A stretch of DNA of 64,000 nt from Eubacteriales bacterium (GCA_045543655.1 JAZPXN010000027.1:64710-128709); one strand, 5' to 3'; shown: positions 41,340-50,995, numbered from the stretch's first letter. The notes: a model not told the origin generated them from the sequence alone. Translations and numbers: made by a program.

Positions 41340-41397
41340 AAGCTTACGACGCAAAAAGCGTGTTCATACCGCGCTTTGAGCTCTTATTCAAAAGACG

Positions 41398-42129
41398 TCA
41401 ATAAACGTCAACGCCGTCAATCACAACGTTGATCTGGGTGTTGGGAAGCTGACACTTGTTGCCCCAAACGTTGGTCCCGAGCGCAGAACCGGCAACGCTG
41501 CCGTATGCGGCATTGAAATCACCAGCGCCGGGAACGGTCTGAGCAAAACCGTTTACGGTGGTGTTCTTAATAATTACGTCATAGGTGCGGATGGGGGTGT
41601 AAGTGTTGGTAATTTCGATGGCAGCCTTCCCGGTAACGGTATCGTTGCCGTTGTCGTTGAATACGCAATCGGTAATATTTACAGTCTGATGGGTCGTTCC
41701 GTTATCCAGAACATTGGCGTAAACGAGCAGGGCCTTACCGTCACAGTTGAAGGTACAACCGGTAAAGGATGCGGTGCCGGCGCCCCAGGTCCAAAGGTTG
41801 TAGTTATTCCCGGAAACGTTGAAGGTGCAGTTATTGAACTCACAGGAATAATCAAGTCCGAGAGTTCCTTCGATGACGCAGTTGTTAAATACGGTATTCT
41901 TAGCATCTGCAAAACCGTAGTTATAGCCGGTACCGGCGGTGCTCTTAATGGTAACGCCTTCGAAGGTAATTTCAGAACCGTTGATATAGGTCAGTCCGTT
42001 AGACACGTCGATGACGGTACCGGGGGTGCCGACAATGGTAACCTTCTTGTTCTTCGCAGCATCGGGAACCTTGAAGGTACCCGCACCGAGGGCGATGGTG
42101 CTGTTTCCGGCCGCAAGAGCATCGGCAAA
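41398..42129 (-). CDS. Beta-helix repeat segment; in-frame continuation of ORF 42130-43461 across a single TAA (interrupted gene or split product)
   Basis: Same reading frame as the upstream ORF. All 41 codons between the TAA (42132-42130) and the listed GTG at 42006 are open. There is no SD, ATG or signal peptide of its own. Contains parallel beta-helix-like repeats (NNCVIEG, NNCTFNVSG, TGCTFNCDG, ITDCVFNDNG). Confidence 0.5.
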   Translation of the reverse strand, partial: FADALAAGNSTIALGAGTFKVPDAAKNKKVTIVGTPGTVIDVSNGLTYINGSEITFEGVTIKSTAGTGYNYGFADAKNTVFNNCVIEGTLGLDYSCEFNNCTFNVSGNNYNLWTWGAGTASFTGCTFNCDGKALLVYANVLDNGTTHQTVNITDCVFNDNGNDTVTGKAAIEITNTYTPIRTYDVIIKNTTVNGFAQTVPGAGDFNAAYGSVAGSALGTNVWGNKCQLPNTQINVVIDGVDVY

Positions 42130-43461
42130 TTAAGTGTTGTTGGAGGTAGCGGGAACGACGTTCCAGACTTCTCCGTTCTTTTCAGCCTTGTACCCCTCGG
42201 CAACCCACGTGGTGGGATTAAAGCCGAAGGTTCCGCCCTTGATCAAAACCGTCCCGGTGCCGAGAATACCGGAAGTATAACCGGATCTGGTGGAAGCCTT
42301 GCCGAAGGTCCCGCCGTTGACGGTCACGGTAGTGCCTGCCCCGGCGTAGATGTAGGCGCGCTTCTGATTCTGAGTCTTATTGAAATCGAAGTTGCCGCCG
42401 TTGATGACGAGGTTGGAGCCTTCCCCTTCAAGATAGAAAAGGTAACGGCCGGAGGTGCTCGTAGAATCGACCTCAACGCTACCGCTGTTGAATACGACGG
42501 ATGCGCCGTCGGTAACACCGATTCCGCCGCCGCCGGAGGACACGGTTACGTCATTATAAACCGTCACGGCCTCCTTGCCGTTGGTGACGTTGGAATAGGT
42601 TCCAGCGGTCCCGGCATTGACCGTAACGTCGTTCAATTCGGCCTTGCCATTGTTCGTGAGGCCGCGGTCGTCAACGTCAATCGTCCCGTCGTTGATCACG
42701 AGATTCCCGTTGTTGGTCACGCTGTTCTTGATGGATTCATCGCCGGCGTTGATCGTAACGTTCGCATTTTCGGAAATATCAACGCTGCCGTTCCGATCGG
42801 CGTCCATTTCATAAACGCCGCCGAAGGCGAAAATAGCGTCGGCAATGGAAGCGTCCTTATCGTACTGATCGTCAATGGAGTCGGATTCCTTGGTATACTG
42901 GGTGGCGTAAACGACGATGGAGACGTTTTCCACCTTCAGGTCCTGGTATTCGTTTCCGGCAGCGGGGTCCATAACGCCGAGAATCGAAATAACACCGGAA
43001 TCTTCACCGGGATTGAGGGGCTTTTCCTTGGTATAGGCGGCCCAAGCATCCAGGTCGCCAATCTCCGTTGTATTACCGTCCTTGGTGACGGAAACGGTGA
43101 AATCAATGGCCTCCAGAAGCTTCACGTCGCCGGAAAGACCGTTGATGAAGACCTGATACTTCAACGCCAGAGTTCCGTTGTTGACAATCTTAAAGTCTTC
43201 CAGCTTGTAACGGCAGCCGGGCTCCCAAAGAATCTTATCGTTTTCGCGACCGTCGATCGCCTCAAACTTCAAAGACTTGCCCTGCAGCGAGTTGTCCCGG
43301 GCATCAACGAGATCTACGTCCAGAGTACCGGACTGGATGGTATTGACGCCGGTGGTTACGGAGTCGGTAAACCACGCAAAGGTGGTGCCGACCAGCATCG
43401 AAACGCAAAGCAACAAAGAAAGAACGCTTGCGAACAACGCTTTTTTCGTGTGTTTGTTCAT
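42130..43461 (-). CDS. Secreted TasA/camelysin-like (peptidase M73-type N-domain) protein with SipW-type signal peptide and beta-helix repeats
   Basis: N-terminus MNKHTKKALFASVLSLLLCVSMLVGTTFAWFTDS followed by NTIQSGTLDVDLV (TasA/CalY-type). AGGAGG lies before the ATG at 43461. It ends at an in-frame TAA. Confidence 0.8.
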   Translation of the reverse strand: MNKHTKKALFASVLSLLLCVSMLVGTTFAWFTDSVTTGVNTIQSGTLDVDLVDARDNSLQGKSLKFEAIDGRENDKILWEPGCRYKLEDFKIVNNGTLALKYQVFINGLSGDVKLLEAIDFTVSVTKDGNTTEIGDLDAWAAYTKEKPLNPGEDSGVISILGVMDPAAGNEYQDLKVENVSIVVYATQYTKESDSIDDQYDKDASIADAIFAFGGVYEMDADRNGSVDISENANVTINAGDESIKNSVTNNGNLVINDGTIDVDDRGLTNNGKAELNDVTVNAGTAGTYSNVTNGKEAVTVYNDVTVSSGGGGIGVTDGASVVFNSGSVEVDSTSTSGRYLFYLEGEGSNLVINGGNFDFNKTQNQKRAYIYAGAGTTVTVNGGTFGKASTRSGYTSGILGTGTVLIKGGTFGFNPTTWVAEGYKAEKNGEVWNVVPATSNNT

Positions 43462-43491
43462 GATTCATCCTCCTAACGGATATATTATTCT

Positions 43492-43794
43492 TTCGCAGAG
43501 GTATGAACTCTGCGGGAGCATATTGTATCACATTTTCAGGAAAAATGCAACAAAAAAAGAGTGGAAAAAGAGAAAAATCACAAAAATGTTGCATTTTCAC
43601 ACATTTACCCTTTGATATGATGAAATAATATTCAAAACTTTCCGTAATACGCCGCCCGCTTGCCGCCAAAATACCCCGAGAAAACTCAGCATTTTAATGG
43701 AAAAGGTAAGGTTAATCGCCGTCAAAATTCTTCGTCAATGTACAAATGAAGCATTGACGTTAACGTGCTTTTCGTAAATTCATACCTCTGCGAA
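43492..43794. repeat. Intergenic segment bracketed by a perfect 16-bp inverted repeat (candidate invertible promoter element)
   Basis: TTCGCAGAGGTATGAA (43492-43507) and its reverse complement TTCATACCTCTGCGAA (43779-43794), separated by 271 bp. Confidence 0.6.
43522..43550 (-). promoter_or_regulatory. Sigma-A promoter of the TasA-like gene, located inside the IR-flanked segment
   Basis: Read on the - strand: TTGCAT (43550-43545), 17 nt, TGATACAAT (-10 at 43527-43522). It points at the ATG at 43461. Confidence 0.6.
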
Positions 43795-43822
43795 TTTTTT
43801 TTATACGGAAAGCAATTGAGAT

Positions 43823-43860
43823 GAAAAAAAACGAGGCACGCTCTGTGAAGAGCGTGCCTT
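43823..43860 (-). terminator. Terminator after the NhaC-family gene
   Basis: AGGCACGCTCT / AGAGCGTGCCT stem, followed by T8 on the - strand. Confidence 0.85.
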
Positions 43861-43885
43861 TTGCAGGATTCGTTTTTTCGTCGGA

Positions 43886-45589
43886 TCAGTCCTTCTTGCG
43901 GTTGGCGAGGAAGGTGAGAAGCCACAGAACGGCAAACATCAGAACCAGGCTGACGCCGAGGACGACCCAGACGTTCTGGACGAAGCCGGCCAGCAGATAG
44001 CCGACCAGGGAAACACCGGCCACGGTCATGGCGTAGGGCAGCTGGGTGGAGACGTGGGTGACGTGGTCGCACTGGCCGCCGGTGGACGACATGATGGTGG
44101 TATCGGAAATGGGGGAGCAATGGTCACCGCAGACGGCGCCGGCAAGGCAGGCAGAGATGCAGATGATGACCAGAGAAGGAATGGAACCGGCATCGGCAAC
44201 GGAGGCCAATTCGGTCTCAAACACGCCGGTAACGATGGGGATGAGGATCCCGAAGGTCCCCCAAGAGGTACCGGTAGCAAAGGCAAGCAGGACGGCCACG
44301 AGGAAGAGGATGGCAGGCAGCAGGATACGGATAGCGGTGAACTGTTCCACCACACCGGCAACGTAGGTGCTGGCACCGAGAAGACCGGTCATGCTCTTCA
44401 GCCCCCAGGCGAAGGTGAGAATCAGAATGGCGGGAACCATCTGCTTAAAGCCTTCGGGGATGGCAGACATACAATCCTTGAAGGAAAGAACGCCGCGGCA
44501 GAGGAAATAAATCACGTTGAGAATCAGAGCGGCGATAGATCCGAGGGCAAGGCCGTAAGAGGCGTCGCAATTAGCAAAGGCATCGATCAGGGTGGTGCCG
44601 TCGCCGGCAAAAAGTCCGCCGGAATAAACCATACCGAGAACGCAGAAAACGATCAGGATCACGACGGGGAGGATCAGATCGATAACCTTCCCCTTTTCGT
44701 TGATCTTTTCATTGGGATTGACGCTGACTTCGGGCTTACGGCCGGAGATCAGGTCGCCTTCGTTCATAGCCTTCAGCTCGTGCTTGCGCATGGGGCCGTA
44801 GTCCTTGCCGGAAAGAGCGATAAACAGAACCATGGCCAGGGTCAGCAGAGCGTAGAGGTTATAGGGGATGGTGCGCATAAACAGGGCGATTCCGTTGATA
44901 TCGGCGCCGTTGGCGTCCTGCACGGTGCCGCTGACGGCAGCAGCCCAGGAAGAAATGGGAGCAATGATACAAATGGGAGCGGCGGTGGCGTCGATGAGAT
45001 ACGACAGCTTCGCACGGGAAATGCGGTGCTTGTCGGTCAAGGGACGCATAACGCTACCGACGGTAAGGCAGTTGAAATAGTCGTCAACGAAGATCAGAAC
45101 GCCGAGAGCAAAGGTGGAAAGCGCGGCGCCCTTGCGGGATTTGATCCGCTTTGCAGCCCATTCGCCGTAAGCGCGGCTTCCGCCGGCCCGGTTCATCATC
45201 ACGACGATAATGCCGAGGACCACGAGGAAGATGAGAATTCCCACGTTGTAGGGATCGGACAGATTGGCGATCAGGCCGTCGTTGAGGATGGCGTTGAAGG
45301 CCTTTTCACCGTCGAATCCGGAGCCGGAGATCCCGTACAGAATCCCGCCGGAGACGATGCCGATAAAGAGCGAGGAATAAGCTTCTTTGGTGATAAGGGC
45401 CAATGCGATGGCGATAACGGGGGGCAGAAGGGCGAGGGCGGTTTCGTTGAACATACTCGCATACTCTGCGGTTTCTTCGGCGACGGCAGCTCCCTCGGCC
45501 ACTTCATCGGCGGAGAAGGTCAGGGTAAAGGCTCCGACGATGGCGAGACACAGCAGCAGGATCCCGAAGATACGGGTCAGTTTTTTCAT
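43886..45589 (-). CDS. NhaC-family transporter (Na+/H+ antiporter family; probable lysine-related transporter given its L-box leader)
   Basis: Polytopic NhaC-like protein. ATG at 45589 follows GGAGGG. A lysine-riboswitch-like leader precedes it. Confidence 0.8.
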   Translation of the reverse strand: MKKLTRIFGILLLCLAIVGAFTLTFSADEVAEGAAVAEETAEYASMFNETALALLPPVIAIALALITKEAYSSLFIGIVSGGILYGISGSGFDGEKAFNAILNDGLIANLSDPYNVGILIFLVVLGIIVVMMNRAGGSRAYGEWAAKRIKSRKGAALSTFALGVLIFVDDYFNCLTVGSVMRPLTDKHRISRAKLSYLIDATAAPICIIAPISSWAAAVSGTVQDANGADINGIALFMRTIPYNLYALLTLAMVLFIALSGKDYGPMRKHELKAMNEGDLISGRKPEVSVNPNEKINEKGKVIDLILPVVILIVFCVLGMVYSGGLFAGDGTTLIDAFANCDASYGLALGSIAALILNVIYFLCRGVLSFKDCMSAIPEGFKQMVPAILILTFAWGLKSMTGLLGASTYVAGVVEQFTAIRILLPAILFLVAVLLAFATGTSWGTFGILIPIVTGVFETELASVADAGSIPSLVIICISACLAGAVCGDHCSPISDTTIMSSTGGQCDHVTHVSTQLPYAMTVAGVSLVGYLLAGFVQNVWVVLGVSLVLMFAVLWLLTFLANRKKD

Positions 45590-45971: not shown

Positions 45972-46454
45972 ATGACCAAAACCAACGCCATGCGGATGCT
46001 GGACAAGGCGAAAATTTCATACGAGCCCAAGGAATATATTCCCGACGAAAACGATTTGAGCGGGGTGCATATCGCCCAACAGATCGGCCTTCCGGCGGGG
46101 CAATGCTCCAAGACCATCGTGACGAGGGGCGACAAGACCGGGCCCGTGGTATTCTGCATTCCCGCAGACCGCTCCATCGACCTGAAAAAAGCCGCAAAGG
46201 TCACGGGAAACAAGAAGGTAGAGCCCCTGCACGTGAAGGATCTTCCGGGGCTGACCGGCTACGTCCGGGGGGCCTGCTCTCCCCTGGGGATGAAGAAAAA
46301 ATTCCCCACCTATATCGACGAAGCCTGCCGGAATTACGAGAAGATCACCGTCAGTGCCGGGATCAAGGGCTGTCAGCTGTTGATCAAAAGTGACGAGATC
46401 GTCGCCTGCGTGGGCGCCACCGTCTGCGATCTTACGGCGGAAAAAGAGGATTAA
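45972..46454 (+). CDS. ybaK: Cys-tRNA(Pro)/Cys-tRNA(Cys) deacylase
   Basis: KTNAMRMLDKAKISYE N-terminus and YbaK/EbsC-like length (160 aa). Confidence 0.85.
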   Translation: MTKTNAMRMLDKAKISYEPKEYIPDENDLSGVHIAQQIGLPAGQCSKTIVTRGDKTGPVVFCIPADRSIDLKKAAKVTGNKKVEPLHVKDLPGLTGYVRGACSPLGMKKKFPTYIDEACRNYEKITVSAGIKGCQLLIKSDEIVACVGATVCDLTAEKED

Positions 46455-46458
46455 CCCC

Positions 46459-46487
46459 TTGACAAATATATAAAAGCGTGCTATAAT
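46459..46487 (+). promoter_or_regulatory. Sigma-A promoter of the ileS T-box leader
   Basis: TTGACA (46459-46464), 17 nt, TGCTATAAT (-10 at 46482-46487). Confidence 0.7.
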
Positions 46488-46499
46488 ATAGAATATATA

Positions 46500-46770
46500 A
46501 TTTAATTTTCAAAAACTGAACCGAAAAGCTGTGACGAAGACAGTAGTCGGGCAGGGAAACGCAAAGCGAGCCGGGGACGGTGTGAGCCCGGTGCGGAGTA
46601 TTGCCCGATGAAGATCCCTTCCGAGCTGCGTGCCGAACGGGCGTACGCCCCAGTAGGTTCCGCCGGGACCCCTACGTCAACGGGGAGCATATGTACGTAT
46701 GTGAATGGGTGGTTAAGCGAAGTTTGCCTTCGTCCCGTTTCTGCGGGGCGGAGGATTTTTGTTTTTCGGG
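46500..46770 (+). promoter_or_regulatory. T-box leader (tRNA-Ile-sensing transcription attenuator) upstream of ileS
   Basis: Stem I elements (CAGTAG S-turn; TCGGGCA/TGCCCGA helix; distal GGTGTGAG). Candidate specifier ATC at 46614-46616. T-box sequence AATGGGTGGTTAAGCG at 46704-46719. Terminator CCTTCGTCCCG...CGGGGCGGAGG plus a T-run at 46727-46770. Confidence 0.75.
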
Positions 46771-46797
46771 AAAGTTGAAGGACACGGAGGAAAAGCT

Positions 46798-49700
46798 ATG
46801 TACGAAAAAGTCTCGGGCGATCTGAATTTCGTCGAACGGGAAAAGAAGATCGAAGAATTCTGGGCAAAGAACGGCATCTTCGAAAAGAGCGTGGATCAGC
46901 GGAAGGACGGAGAATACTTCACCTTCTACGACGGCCCGCCCACCGCCAACGGCAAGCCCCACATCGGTCACGTGCTGACCCGCGTGATCAAGGATACCAT
47001 CCCCCGCTACAAGGCCATGAAGGGGAATTTCACCGTCCGCAAGGCCGGCTGGGATACCCACCGTCTTCCCGTGGAGCTGGAAGTGGAAAAGAAGCAGGGC
47101 CTCGACGGAAAGGAGCAGATCGAAGAATACGGTCTGGAGCCCTTCATCAAGGAATGCAAGGAGAGCGTCTGGAGATATAAGGGAATGTGGGAGGATTTCT
47201 CCGATACCGTCGGTTATTGGGCGGATATGAAGGATCCCTACGTCACCTACGACAATAACTTCATTGAATCCGAGTGGTGGGCGCTGAAGCAGATCTGGGA
47301 AAAGGGGCTCTTGTACAAGGGCTTTAAGATCGTTCCCTACTGCCCCCGCTGCGGAACGCCTCTGTCCAGCCACGAGGTTGCCCAAGGATATAAGACCGTA
47401 AAGGAACGCTCCGCCGTGGTTCGCTTCAAGGCCGTGGGCGAGGACGCTTATTTCCTGGCCTGGACCACCACGCCCTGGACGTTGCCCTCCAACGTGGCCC
47501 TGTGCGTAAACCCCGACGACACCTACTGCAAGGTCAAGGCCGCCGACGGATACGTCTATTATATGGCTCAGGCGCTGCTGGATACGGTACTGGGAAAGCT
47601 TTCGGAGGACGGAAAAGACGCCTACGAGGTTCTTGAAACCTACGCCGGCAAGGATCTGGAGGGGAAAGAATACGAGCCTCTCTTCGCCTGCGCTGCCGCC
47701 GTTGCGGAAAAACAGCATAAAAAAGGCTTCTTTATCACCTGCGACGGTTACGTCACCATGGCCGACGGTACGGGCATCGTTCATATTGCTCCCGCCTTCG
47801 GTGAAGACGACGCCAAGGTTGGCCGGAAATACGATCTGCCCTTCGTTCAGTTCGTAGACGGCGCCGGCAACATGACCGAGGATACCCCCTACGCAGGCAA
47901 ATTCGTCAAGGATGCAGATCCTCTGGTGCTTGCGGATCTGGACAAAGAGGGCAAGCTCTTCGACGCCCCCAAATTCGAACACGAATACCCCTTCTGCTGG
48001 CGCTGCGATACGCCGCTGATCTACTATGCGAGAGAATCCTGGTTCATTAAGATGACCGACGTGAAGGACGATCTTTTGAAGAACAACGCCACCATCAACT
48101 GGATGCCCGAAAACATCGGCACCGGCCGCTTCGGGGACTGGCTGAAGAACGTTCAGGACTGGGGTATCAGCCGCAACCGCTATTGGGGCACGCCCTTGAA
48201 CGTGTGGCAGTGCGAATGCGGTCATCAGCACGCCGTTGGATCCATTGAAGAGCTGAAATCCATGTCCGACAACTGTCCCGACGACGTGGAGCTGCACCGG
48301 CCCTATATCGACGCAGTCACCCTCAAATGTCCTCATTGCGGAAAGGAAATGCACCGGGTGCCGGAGGTCATCGACTGCTGGTTCGACTCCGGGGCGATGC
48401 CCTTCGCTCAATGGCACTATCCCTTTGAAAATCAAGATATTTTTGAAAAGACCTTCCCTGCCGACTTTATCAGCGAAGGGGTCGATCAAACCCGCGGATG
48501 GTTCTATTCTCTGCTGGCCATCTCCACCCTGCTGTTCAACAAGGCTCCTTACAAGAACGTTATCGTCCTCGGTCACGTTCAGGATGCGGACGGTCAGAAG
48601 ATGTCCAAATCCAAGGGCAACGCGGTGGATCCCTTTGACGCTTTGAATCAACACGGCGCCGACGCCATCCGCTGGTATTTCTATTCCAACTCCGCGCCCT
48701 GGCTTCCCAACCGCTTCCATCACGGGGCGGTGACCGAAGGCCAGCGGAAATTCATGGGCACGCTCTGGAATACCTACGCCTTTTTCGTTCTGTACGCCAA
48801 CATCGACGGCTTTGACGCCACGAAATATACGCTGGATTACGATAAACTGAGCGTTATGGACAAATGGATGATCTCCAAGCTCAATACGCTGATCAAGACC
48901 TGCGACGAGTATATGAGCAATTATAAGATCACCGAGGTCTCCCGCGTGATGCAGTCCTTCGTGGACGATATGAGCAACTGGTACGTCCGTCGGAGCCGGG
49001 AACGGTTCTGGGCAAAGGGTATGGAGCAGGATAAGATCAACGCGTATATGACCCTGTATACCGTCCTGGTCACCTTCTGCAAGCTGGCCGCTCCCCTGGT
49101 TCCCTTCGTCACCGAGGATATCTATCAGAATCTGGTGAGAAGTATCGACAAGAGCGCTCCCGAAAGCATCCATCTCTGCGATTACCCCGTGGCCAACGAG
49201 GCGTGGATCCATCCCGATATGGAAGCGGAAATGGACGAGGTTCTGCAGGTGGTCACCCTGGGCCGTAACTGCCGGAACGCCGCCAACATCAAGAACCGTC
49301 AGCCCATCGCCGCCATGTACGTGAAGGCCGACCGGGAGCTGGGCGAGGAATACAAGGCCATCGTTGCCGACGAGCTGAACGTCCGGGAGGTTCGCATCGC
49401 AGAAAGCGTGAAGCAGTTCCTGTCCTATTCCTTCAAGCCCCAACTGAAGACGGTGGGGCCGAAATACGGCAAATACCTTAACGCCATCCGCACCGCTCTG
49501 ACCGAGCTGAACGGAGCGGAGGCCATGGACGAGCTGGAAGCCAACGGCTGCCTGAAGCTGAATCTGGACGGCGTCGAGATTCTCCTCGGGAAGGAAGATC
49601 TGCTCGTTGAATCTGCGCAGACCGCCGGCTACGAATCCTGCACCGACAACGGAATCACGGTGGTTCTCGACACGACCCTGACCCCCGAGCTGATCGAGGA

Positions 49701-49956
49701 AGGATTCGTTCGCGAGATCATCAGCAAAATCCAGACCATGCGGAAGGATTCCGGCTTTGAAGTGACCGATCATATTGCCGTTTATACCTTCGGAAACGAT
49801 AAGATCGCGGAGTTGTTCCGAAACAACGAAGCAACCATCAAGGCGGAGGTTCTTGCCGATGCCGTGGAATACGCAGAGCCCGGCGAGAACGAGCACGCAA
49901 AAGCCTGGAGCATCAACGGGGAAAAGGTCACCCTCGGCGTGAAAGTAATCGGATAA
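46798..49956 (+). CDS. ileS: Isoleucine--tRNA ligase
   Basis: HIGH motif (PHIGHV) and KMSKS motif (QKMSKSKGN). 1052 aa. ATG at 46798 follows GGAGGA. Confidence 0.95.
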   Translation: MYEKVSGDLNFVEREKKIEEFWAKNGIFEKSVDQRKDGEYFTFYDGPPTANGKPHIGHVLTRVIKDTIPRYKAMKGNFTVRKAGWDTHRLPVELEVEKKQGLDGKEQIEEYGLEPFIKECKESVWRYKGMWEDFSDTVGYWADMKDPYVTYDNNFIESEWWALKQIWEKGLLYKGFKIVPYCPRCGTPLSSHEVAQGYKTVKERSAVVRFKAVGEDAYFLAWTTTPWTLPSNVALCVNPDDTYCKVKAADGYVYYMAQALLDTVLGKLSEDGKDAYEVLETYAGKDLEGKEYEPLFACAAAVAEKQHKKGFFITCDGYVTMADGTGIVHIAPAFGEDDAKVGRKYDLPFVQFVDGAGNMTEDTPYAGKFVKDADPLVLADLDKEGKLFDAPKFEHEYPFCWRCDTPLIYYARESWFIKMTDVKDDLLKNNATINWMPENIGTGRFGDWLKNVQDWGISRNRYWGTPLNVWQCECGHQHAVGSIEELKSMSDNCPDDVELHRPYIDAVTLKCPHCGKEMHRVPEVIDCWFDSGAMPFAQWHYPFENQDIFEKTFPADFISEGVDQTRGWFYSLLAISTLLFNKAPYKNVIVLGHVQDADGQKMSKSKGNAVDPFDALNQHGADAIRWYFYSNSAPWLPNRFHHGAVTEGQRKFMGTLWNTYAFFVLYANIDGFDATKYTLDYDKLSVMDKWMISKLNTLIKTCDEYMSNYKITEVSRVMQSFVDDMSNWYVRRSRERFWAKGMEQDKINAYMTLYTVLVTFCKLAAPLVPFVTEDIYQNLVRSIDKSAPESIHLCDYPVANEAWIHPDMEAEMDEVLQVVTLGRNCRNAANIKNRQPIAAMYVKADRELGEEYKAIVADELNVREVRIAESVKQFLSYSFKPQLKTVGPKYGKYLNAIRTALTELNGAEAMDELEANGCLKLNLDGVEILLGKEDLLVESAQTAGYESCTDNGITVVLDTTLTPELIEEGFVREIISKIQTMRKDSGFEVTDHIAVYTFGNDKIAELFRNNEATIKAEVLADAVEYAEPGENEHAKAWSINGEKVTLGVKVIG

Positions 49957-50014
49957 AACACCTCTCCCCCGATCAATACGGTCGGGGGAGGTTTGCAAAA
50001 AAAGGAGAACGCCC

Positions 50015-50995
50015 ATGCCAAAATCCAGAAATCAGAAACTGAAGCTGCCCTGCCTGATCCGCATCCTGAAGGAAAAGACCGACGTCGATCACGGTCTTTC
50101 TACCGAAGAGCTGATCCGGGAGCTGGGGCGATACGATATTTCGGCAGAGCGAAAAAGCATCTACGACGATATTGATCTTCTGCAGAACAATTTCGGGATG
50201 GCTATCGAGCACGATAAGGCCCGGGGATACCGATTGGTGGAGCAGGAATTCGATCTGCCGGAGTTGAAGCTGCTGGTGGATGCGGTACAATCCTGCAAAT
50301 TTATTTCCACGGCAAAAAGCGAGGATCTGATCCGGAAGCTGAAGGGGCTGACCAGCGAGCATCGGGCAAGGGAGCTGCAACGGCAGGTGACGGTCAAGGA
50401 TCGCATCAAATCCATGCACAATTCCACGATCTATTCCATCGACACCATCCAGAACGCGCTACAGAATAACCGGCAGATTTCCTTCCAGTATTGGGGCTGG
50501 ACGCCCTCAAAAGAGCAGAAACCCCGCCACGACGGGAAGCGATATCTGGTGTCCCCCTGGTCGCTGTTGTGGGATCACGAATACTATTATCTCATTGCCT
50601 TTGACAGTGAAAAGCAGGCCATTCGCCATTACCGCGTAGACCGGATGCGGAGCGTCAGCGAAGAAAACGCCGGACGGGAGGGCCGGGAGGCCTTCGAAAA
50701 GCTGGACGTGGCGGAATACTCCTCCGGCGTATTCGGGATGTTCGGTGGAAACACCACCCACGTGACCTTCCGTTGCAAGAAAAAAATGGCGGACGTGATC
50801 ATTGACCGGTTCGGGAAAGACGTGATGATGACGCCGGAGCCGGACGGGTTTAAGTTCCACGCGGATATCGACGTTTCTCCCCAGTTTTTTGGCTGGGTTG
50901 CCTCGTTGGGAGACGAGATCCGCATCGAAGCCCCGGCGAAAACGGTGGCAGAATTCAAGCAATACATGATCAAAGCGCTGGAGCAATACGAATAA
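50015..50995 (+). CDS. WYL-domain transcriptional regulator (N-terminal HTH + WYL + C-terminal WCX-like domain)
   Basis: DeoR/HTH-like N-terminus and a WYL core (YLVSPWSLLWDHEYYYLIAFD...IRHYRVDRM). Confidence 0.8.
   Translation: MPKSRNQKLKLPCLIRILKEKTDVDHGLSTEELIRELGRYDISAERKSIYDDIDLLQNNFGMAIEHDKARGYRLVEQEFDLPELKLLVDAVQSCKFISTAKSEDLIRKLKGLTSEHRARELQRQVTVKDRIKSMHNSTIYSIDTIQNALQNNRQISFQYWGWTPSKEQKPRHDGKRYLVSPWSLLWDHEYYYLIAFDSEKQAIRHYRVDRMRSVSEENAGREGREAFEKLDVAEYSSGVFGMFGGNTTHVTFRCKKKMADVIIDRFGKDVMMTPEPDGFKFHADIDVSPQFFGWVASLGDEIRIEAPAKTVAEFKQYMIKALEQYE

Follow-up and report, generated by a model that had tools for sequence, protein, structure and literature searches.

In the 64,000-nucleotide stretch of Eubacteriales bacterium DNA analyzed here (GCA_045543655.1, JAZPXN010000027.1:64710-128709; hereafter the window), a 424-nt intergenic region (43462-43885) lies between two minus-strand genes, one encoding a surface protein with a SipW-dependent signal peptide and the other an NhaC-like antiporter. 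The segment at 43508-43778 within this region is very probably an invertible promoter, i.e., a phase-variation switch for the surface-protein gene, in a copy that is, or recently was, functional. A preliminary description of this DNA, made from the sequence alone, had proposed such an invertible promoter (inverton). An inverted repeat, a family of sites at which inversion is observed in relatives, homology of the enclosed promoter to the promoters of those relatives, and the positions of contig breaks in Logan assemblies all agree with that proposal.

The repeat is perfect over 16 bp, as the preliminary description had it: TTCGCAGAGGTATGAA and its exact reverse complement bracket 271 nt of the intergenic region, and pairing does not extend further in either direction (Table 1). 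Both the 16-mer, with up to 3 mismatches allowed, and the 9-mer TTCGYAGAG are present in the 64 kb only as these two copies, and the enclosed segment has a GC content of 36.5% vs. 54% for the window. Markov simulations of the 424-nt region (n=3000) gave no repeat of at least 15 bp, the maximum being 14 bp, reached twice. In a window-wide simulation with spacers of 40-1500 nt, 16 bp was reached in 1 of 60 simulated windows. The earlier statement that a repeat of this kind is very unlikely by chance therefore holds for the intergenic region and has to be softened for the window as a whole, where the repeat is moderately significant. By itself it is not decisive.

The two arms are built like the core sites of tyrosine recombinases, in which two inverted half-sites surround a 7-bp core: together with its adjoining inner bases, the window arm reads TTCGCAGAG GTATGAA CTCTGCG, and the cores of the two sites, L (gene-proximal) and R (distal), are exact reverse complements of each other. 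Is this arrangement found elsewhere? Species-representative genomes scanned with an alignment of the protein family gave 77 loci, the best of which is 47% identical (in metagenome-assembled genomes, MAGs, of Acutalibacteraceae); the source species is therefore not among the species representatives. A mismatch-tolerant survey revealed a perfect 27-bp repeat in locus L032 (TTTTCGTAGAG TATAACA CTCTGCGAA) and a related repeat in L077, from Faecalibacterium prausnitzii, both of which share their half-site with the window arm. The architecture TTCGyAGAG, 7 nt, inverted half-site occurs at 18 sites in the loci vs. 0.6 in shuffles, and all sites of this family adjoin homologs of the same gene family. 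Inverted pairs of sites are present in L008, L032, L045, L055, L067, L073, L077, and L081, and a single site is found in L063, where the contig ends. The pairs of the window, L032, and L077 are short and enclose no recombinase gene; those of L008, L045, L055, L067, L073, and L081 are long, with the sites ~1.2-1.45 kb apart. The outer half-site and core, together exactly 16 bp, are identical between partners in eight of nine pairs, with degenerate inner halves, and in L067 the partner cores no longer match. These 16 bp equal the length of the window's repeat, and strand exchange within a 7-bp core requires such identity. With a conserved outer half-site, inverted pairing, nearby SipW-type genes, and an outward-facing extended -10 promoter abutting the site, the window sites can be assigned by sequence to this TTCGyAGAG-N7 family, from which they depart in core polarity.

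Seven loci have a gene for a tyrosine recombinase of ~370 aa (PF00589 + PF14659) that is bracketed by the sites or adjoins them. These enzymes carry a SAM_3 N-domain, and NCBIfam invertase models score on them far below cutoff. Downstream of the recombinase-containing segments lie tetR, an LPXTG gene, a camelysin-like gene, the SipW signal peptidase gene (NF046067/TIGR02228), and genes for SipW-type surface proteins.

Inversion between sites of this family is directly visible in assemblies of the relatives. Between L081 and L067 the flanks are collinear (91% and 89% identity), and the 1.5-kb interior is inverted at 86% identity. An identical LPXTG protein, P0150, is encoded on many contigs, and nine of the ten places shown span the segment; across these nine assemblies the neighboring genes are unchanged, and the recombinase gene lies on the minus strand in four (L082, L083, L086, and L087) and on the plus strand in five (L084, L085, L088, L089, and L090). 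Comparison of L082 with L084 gives a left flank of 100% and a right flank of 99.7% identity around a 1491-bp interior inverted at 99.9% identity. Here TTCGCAGAG TTAGTCA is fixed in place and the inner half-sites CTCTGTTAA and CTCTGTGAG swap ends, which is the signature of conservative site-specific inversion with the crossover in the core. Assemblies carrying another protein, P0130, have one orientation in all cases, and two contigs (L091 and L092) end at positions not informative for orientation. A further segment of 166 bp is inverted between L083 (1530-1695) and L090 (1529-1694); it has a serine recombinase (Resolvase) gene on one side and a 149-aa gene on the other, lies a short way upstream of the large invertible segment, and is probably a separate small inverton.

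The preliminary description had placed a near-consensus sigma-A promoter at 43550-43522 of the minus strand, aimed at an AGGAGG motif and an ATG start codon. The promoter (P1), the AGGAGG, and the ATG at 43461 are all present; "near-consensus" overstates the match, which is 3/6 in the -35 and 5/6 in the -10 element, plus an extended TG. A scan with consensus promoters does not list P1 and lists a divergent site (P2) instead. P1 lies 5 nt away from site L, and its transcription start is predicted near 43515. An outward extended -10 promoter likewise reads through the site at the 5' end of the recombinase gene, at a distance of 4-26 nt, in five of the six recombinase-containing segments scanned (two of the six, L082 and L084, represent one locus in opposite orientations). 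P1 is like the outward promoters of L055, L008, L081/L082, L073, and L032 in both position and sequence. When their promoter-site junctions are aligned with the window (43575-43478, minus strand), invariant columns are found in the -35, the TG-extended -10, CnCAGAG, and CTCTnCGAAA, and the 17-nt spacer, a core, and CTCTGCGAA are likewise common to window and relatives. Because of these invariant columns, P1 appears to be a homolog of the relatives' switch promoter. Beyond the junction, the window segment and the non-coding sequence of the segments with a recombinase gene are not significantly similar.

As assembled, P1 faces the gene, and this orientation would be the ON state, as was originally suggested. 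Flipping the segment in silico directs P1 at the nhaC terminator, again as described before; what that description lacked is that P2 then faces the gene through a structured leader of ~200 nt. Because of this second, divergent promoter-like site, the flipped state is not necessarily fully OFF. In the assembled orientation, the 64-nt leader has a minimum-free-energy fold (-15.2 kcal/mol, z = -2.0) that includes the hairpin formed by palindromic site L; this hairpin may have a role in mRNA stability.

Independent assemblies of the locus are few, and the source species is rarely sampled. The 90% cluster of the surface protein consists of the source contig (128,864 bp, NCBI) and one 687-aa Logan protein only, and the clusters of the neighboring GH2 and MFS proteins led to the source contig alone. 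The 687-aa protein is encoded on two contigs, L001 (SRR10963010) and L002 (SRR14289618), each with 98% identity to the window and with 4 differences between them over 2711 positions. Their far ends differ (40639 and 40797), and both begin on the first base of the arm, TTCATACCTCTGCGAA..., at window position 43507; the gene-proximal arm is unchanged in both. Logan assemblies are built with k=31, and contigs connected to other contigs are reported (PMC12424806). Because a 16-bp repeat cannot break a 31-mer graph, the graph branches exactly at the inner repeat edge, and a mixed population of the two orientations would give contigs that end at just this edge; this evidence is indirect but specific. 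Scans of JGI metagenomes for both window arms separated by a gap of 256-286 nt, and for a 20-mer common to the arms of L077, each gave 0 matches. A protein database search with the concatenated stop-free frames of the 303-bp element, aimed at ORFs on short branch contigs, gave no matches.

The same breaks might instead come from co-existing strains that differ upstream of site L, for example by another cassette or by a longer segment containing a recombinase gene. The locus is indeed strain-variable, the whole cassette that carries the switch being absent in one ENA contig (L003), and coincident contig ends occur elsewhere too: L003 and a second ENA contig, L004, both start at 46215, inside a ybaK-like tRNA-editing gene (45972-46454), which suggests another strain-level branch point. 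We nevertheless consider this origin of the breaks very unlikely. The branch matches the inner repeat edge to the base in two samples, whereas presence or absence of the cassette would give branches at 43833/41341 instead of 43507, and neither L001 nor L002 is interrupted at 41341. Moreover, this scenario too implies recombination at the site.

Readings in which the repeat is not a recombination element at all are the least probable, and we regard them as highly improbable: the arms would be a chance repeat, a pair of operators for a dimeric regulator acting by DNA looping, the ends of a transposon resembling a miniature inverted-repeat transposable element (MITE), or the two strands of a long-range RNA helix. 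A dimeric transcription factor could bind palindromic sites of the 9-N7-9 form, and in the relatives such sites are followed by a TetR gene; the same sites are, however, the breakpoints of observed inversions. In the case of a MITE, a flank contig would reach k-1 = 30 nt into the repeated element, not 16 nt. A MITE or insertion sequence was rejected on other grounds as well, since the flanks, ...TATTATTCT and TTTTTTTTAT..., have no target-site duplication and the element is single-copy in 64 kb. The 303 nt of the element do fold better than shuffles (z = -6.0), but the 16-bp closing stem itself accounts for this score, and there is no promoter from which both arms would be transcribed. An RNA structure was rejected, Rfam being negative with sub-threshold matches only (the best, overlapping the terminator, at 30 bits vs. 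a gathering score of 72). An element of the serine-invertase (Hin/Gin) type was likewise set aside: there is no resolvase or invertase homolog in the window, and the relatives' sites and enzymes are of the tyrosine-recombinase type.

Several observations weigh against a working switch at this locus. The contig breaks show a branch at the repeat edge, not specifically an inversion, and the one full assembly that spans the window copy is the window itself, in a single orientation. The -35 element of P1 is weak, and the promoter-like site P2 is opposite to P1 in direction. No recombinase is encoded within the 64 kb. The inner half of site R agrees with the family half-site at 3/9 positions in a hand comparison (7/9 with a shift of 1 nt). 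The core polarity of the window, taken relative to the promoter and to the perfect and degenerate half-sites, is reversed vs. all other family members: read outward from the promoter, the relatives' cores are TGATGAA, GGATGAA, TGATAAA, TGACTAA, TGGCTAA, and TGTTATA, and that of the window is TTCATAC, the reverse complement of GTATGAA. Finally, the regulated gene contains a premature TAA at 42132-42130, where L001 and L002 have GAA; because of this nonsense codon the locus could be decaying, and the TAA itself may be a real pseudogenization or a MAG assembly error.

A decayed inverton, locked with its promoter fixed ON, would account for the degenerate inner half of site R, the atypical core polarity, the lack of a recombinase in the window, and the premature stop, and would be in line with L067, a relative whose partner cores no longer match. 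We think such a relic unlikely, since the 16 bp of outer half-site and core needed for strand exchange still agree perfectly in the two arms, two other strains have the arm unaltered, and two independent k=31 assemblies branch exactly at its inner edge. Reversed core polarity and a poor inner half at site R are in principle no bar to inversion, because the partner sites stay identical and inverted. A functional, or recently functional, invertible promoter is thus the reading we prefer.

Which enzyme could act on these sites? The preliminary description had seen no recombinase gene in the window, and phmmer, hidden Markov model (HMM), and tblastn searches bear this out. In phmmer searches of the 64 kb with Hin, gamma-delta resolvase, XerD, and FimB (approximate queries) the best E-value was 0.17. 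An HMM of seven in-segment recombinases (from L008, L045, L055, L063, L067, L073, and L081) reached 0.36 in the window, with positive controls at 1e-166 to 1e-219, and the recombinase of a second inverton family (L009-type, described below) matched nothing there at E <= 0.01. A weak tblastn match at 48316-48642 is spurious; it falls in a shadow open reading frame (ORF) of ileS and misses the catalytic domain. No remnants of a recombinase gene are found in the window segment. The segments of L032 and L077 also contain no recombinase gene, and L032 has none adjacent either. An enzyme for the window sites would therefore have to act in trans, and to judge from L032, action in trans is normal for the short form.

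In the mechanism we propose, a tyrosine recombinase (Phage_integrase family) whose gene lies elsewhere in the genome would pair the two inverted sites; its counterpart in the relatives is usually encoded within its own invertible segment, next to an operon of the sipW/tasA type. Strands would be exchanged within the identical 16 bp and the segment would flip, creating the junction ...TTCGCAGAGGTATGAA followed directly by TTTACGAAAAGCAC... (L-flank and arm joined to the reverse complement of the segment's right end). In the ON state, P1 would transcribe through site L into the surface-protein gene with its SipW-dependent signal peptide. In the OFF state, or in a state of reduced expression if P2 is active, P1 would point to the nhaC terminator and the gene would lose this promoter.

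More tentatively, and with somewhat more doubt than confidence, the window switch may be an "orphan" within a phase-variation regulon that works in trans and extends widely through the dominant Clostridia of the gut (Faecalibacterium, Agathobacter, Oscillospiraceae, and Acutalibacteraceae). A master segment, with its own tyrosine recombinase and an outward promoter, would lie beside a tetR-LPXTG-tasA-sipW operon, and the same enzyme would flip the short, recombinase-less site pairs in front of other genes for SipW-type surface proteins. Some of these short copies, that of the window included, would be carried on small strain-variable cassettes.

Inverted repeats of other kinds are also found near homologous genes. 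Three of 122 upstream regions of such genes contain perfect repeats of 18-22 bp, and 0 of 610 shuffles reached 13 bp. Two of the three, L009 and L065, form together with L010 and L052 one inverton family that is unrelated in sequence to the window repeat, with ACATAA-N6-TTATGT repeats around an AT-rich stretch of 213-286 bp and a gene for a 280-aa tyrosine recombinase ending 40-60 nt before the segment. The arms remain complementary despite divergence between the four species. The segments are too diverged for their orientation to be read by homology; the strongest promoter-like site points toward the operon in L010 and in the opposite direction in L065, L052, and L009. Judged from these sequences, the gene family appears to have been placed repeatedly under invertible control. 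A third inverted repeat, CGGCAATCAAArGrCACAAA, is conserved across species; it encloses 75-146 nt and lies close to the same surface-protein genes, on their upstream or their downstream side.

Table 1. Positions of the switch, its surroundings, and comparable elements in related loci (window coordinates unless a contig is named).
Feature	Contig	Position	Strand	Remarks
Site L, gene-proximal recombination site	window	43492..43516	.	9/9 + 7/9 vs. family half-site; aligns with sites of inverting elements
Site L, outer half-site	window	43492-43500		TTCGCAGAG
Site L, 7-nt core	window	43501-43507		GTATGAA
Site L, inner half-site	window	43508-43516		CTCTGCGGG; degenerate
Site R, distal recombination site	window	43770..43794	.	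outer half and core as in site L, inverted
Site R, inner half	window	43770-43778		TTTCGTAAA; poor
Site R, core	window	43779-43785		TTCATAC
Site R, outer half	window	43786-43794		CTCTGCGAA
Left arm of 16-bp repeat	window	43492..43507	+	outer half-site + core
Right arm of 16-bp repeat	window	43779..43794	+	
Predicted invertible segment, 271 bp	window	43508..43778	.	36.5% GC; Logan contigs L001 and L002 end at 43507/43508
Promoter P1 (predicted)	window	43522..43550	-	TTGCAT-17-TGaTACAAT; would read through site L into gene
Promoter-like site P2	window	43594..43621	+	TTTTCA-16-TGaTATGAT; consensus match only
Ribosome-binding site and start codon	window	43459..43474	-	AGGAGG 43474-43469; ATG 43461-43459
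Leader hairpin (predicted)	window	43494..43514	-	CGCAGAG-N7-CUCUGCG; predicted 5' end of P1 transcript; from palindromic site L
Regulated gene, N-terminal part, 443 aa	window	42130..43461	-	SipW-dependent signal peptide; ends at premature TAA
Regulated gene, C-terminal remainder, 202-aa ORF	window	41398..42006	-	
nhaC-like gene terminator hairpin	window	43834..43859	-	bounds cassette
Strain-variable cassette (switch + surface-protein gene), 2493 bp	window	41341..43833	.	absent from L003
Outward promoter	L081, L082, L084			TTGATT-17-TGnTATAAT
Outward promoter	L008			TTGCAT-17-TGnTATAAT
Outward promoter	L055			TTGCAT-17-TGnTAAAAT
Promoter	L032			TTGCTT-17-TGcTATAAT; ~28 nt from gene-proximal site
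L009-type element	L009	5710-5966		
L009-type element	L065	5642-5920		
L009-type element	L010	2186-2506		
L009-type element	L052	2401-2758		
Third inverted repeat	L005	8039-8220		
Third inverted repeat	L017	4282-4467		
Third inverted repeat	L019	8573-8695		
Third inverted repeat	L026	2264-2405, 7731-7906		
Third inverted repeat	L065	7482-7656		

In L001 and L002 the regulated gene is uninterrupted and encodes 687 aa; in the window it is split into ORFs of 443 and 202 aa. Its product has the SipW-type signal ascribed to it in the preliminary description (TIGR04088, E=6.5e-6; PF12389 over residues 6-51 only). In an AlphaFold model of the intact 687-aa homolog (pLDDT 79, pTM 0.71), the N-terminal part, up to about residue 180, is similar to 7ueg, a TasA-like archaeal bundling pilin (prob 1.0, TMt 0.45), and the remainder resembles right-handed beta-helix proteins with E-values of 2e-3 to 1e-2. 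A Foldseek search with this model gave no match at E <= 0.001, and a profile search of PDB sequences found nothing meaningful. The earlier label of a TasA/camelysin-like beta-helix protein, borne out as to the signal peptide, is plausible but weakly supported.

Upstream of the switch, the nhaC-like antiporter gene (43886-45589, minus strand; PF03553) and its terminator hairpin are found as first described. The loop of this terminator reads TCAC on the minus strand of the window vs. GTGA in L003 and L004, so that either the loop or the whole palindrome is flipped, and L004 ends within the hairpin. In L003, which comes from a 98%-identical strain, the nhaC terminator is joined directly to the terminator downstream of the surface-protein gene, with 8 nt (tagactgt) in place of the cassette; the whole 2493-bp cassette is therefore strain-variable. 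Neither repeats nor att-like sites were seen at the cassette boundaries.

Farther along the window, an ORF of 1114 aa (46672-50016, minus strand) has no family match and is a shadow of ileS (46759-49956, plus strand; PF00133, E=1.5e-127). Many of the other long antisense ORFs of the window, with its GC content of 54%, are shadows of this kind. A promoter of perfect consensus (46459-46487) precedes ileS. Directly after ileS lies a gene for a WYL/WCX-domain regulator (50015-50995), which matches WYL models in the PADLOC CRISPR-associated signaling set; none of the ORFs scanned beside it matched a defense-system model.

How does this switch compare with characterized systems? The fimS element of Escherichia coli is an invertible promoter segment of ~300 bp with 9-bp repeats, flipped by the tyrosine recombinases FimB and FimE (~200 aa), whose genes are adjacent. 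The window element shares with it a short segment and short inverted repeats next to a surface-structure gene, and resembles it further in the predicted outward promoter and the proposed flipping by a tyrosine recombinase. It differs in having no recombinase gene within 64 kb and in the 16 bp that are identical between its arms, and the relatives' enzyme, at ~370 aa with a SAM_3 N-domain, is of another subfamily than FimB and FimE. In Salmonella, the H segment is inverted by Hin, a serine recombinase that acts at 26-bp hix sites with a 2-bp core and an enhancer bound by Fis. Like the H segment, the segments of L008, L045, L055, and L081-L090 carry a recombinase gene and an outward promoter serving, in one orientation, the surface-protein operon beside it; unlike Hin, the enzymes are tyrosine recombinases with 7-bp cores, and the window element has no recombinase gene.

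A parallel within the Clostridia is RecV of Clostridioides difficile, which is reported to be a single tyrosine recombinase acting in trans on the flgB, cwpV, cmrRST, and pdcB switches (PMC7446863; PMC9286219; PMC5903667). Those switches resemble the window element in being short invertible segments upstream of surface or motility genes. Their repeat sequences are unrelated to the window's, and the recombinase of the family described here typically has its gene within an invertible segment of its own. In C. difficile, moreover, some switches work at a stage later than transcription initiation and not by promoter orientation. Large catalogs of gut invertons define shared groups of inverted-repeat motifs, with new motifs in Clostridia-like Firmicutes_A (PMC11892184; PMC11602134), and an intergenic promoter flanked by inverted repeats beside a surface-associated gene in a host-associated bacterium, as in the window, is an arrangement typical of their entries; the inferred role is the same as well. 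No paper linking invertons to loci of the SipW/TasA type or reporting the half-site was found in a search that did not extend to the inverted-repeat tables of these catalogs, so prior cataloging is possible; the supplementary text of PMC11892184 does not contain the half-site.

The mechanism itself is already known, invertible promoters being well established as a means of surface variation in gut bacteria. The contribution of this locus is the site family, with its TTCGyAGAG half-site, 7-bp core, and degenerate inverted half-site, together with its likely enzyme, conserved in several abundant gut Clostridia. The family is tied to TasA-like or beta-helix surface proteins with a SipW signal, a class that is hugely expanded in these bacteria and for which we found no earlier link to phase variation. 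If confirmed, the family would provide a sequence signature by which such switches can be found without read data, and the compact recombinase with its pair of sites is a candidate tool. It would also suggest that matrix and adhesin proteins are heterogeneously expressed in commensals such as Faecalibacterium and Agathobacter. Should the proposed regulon exist, the repertoire of fibers and adhesins in these bacteria would be shuffled between strains and switched stochastically within a strain.

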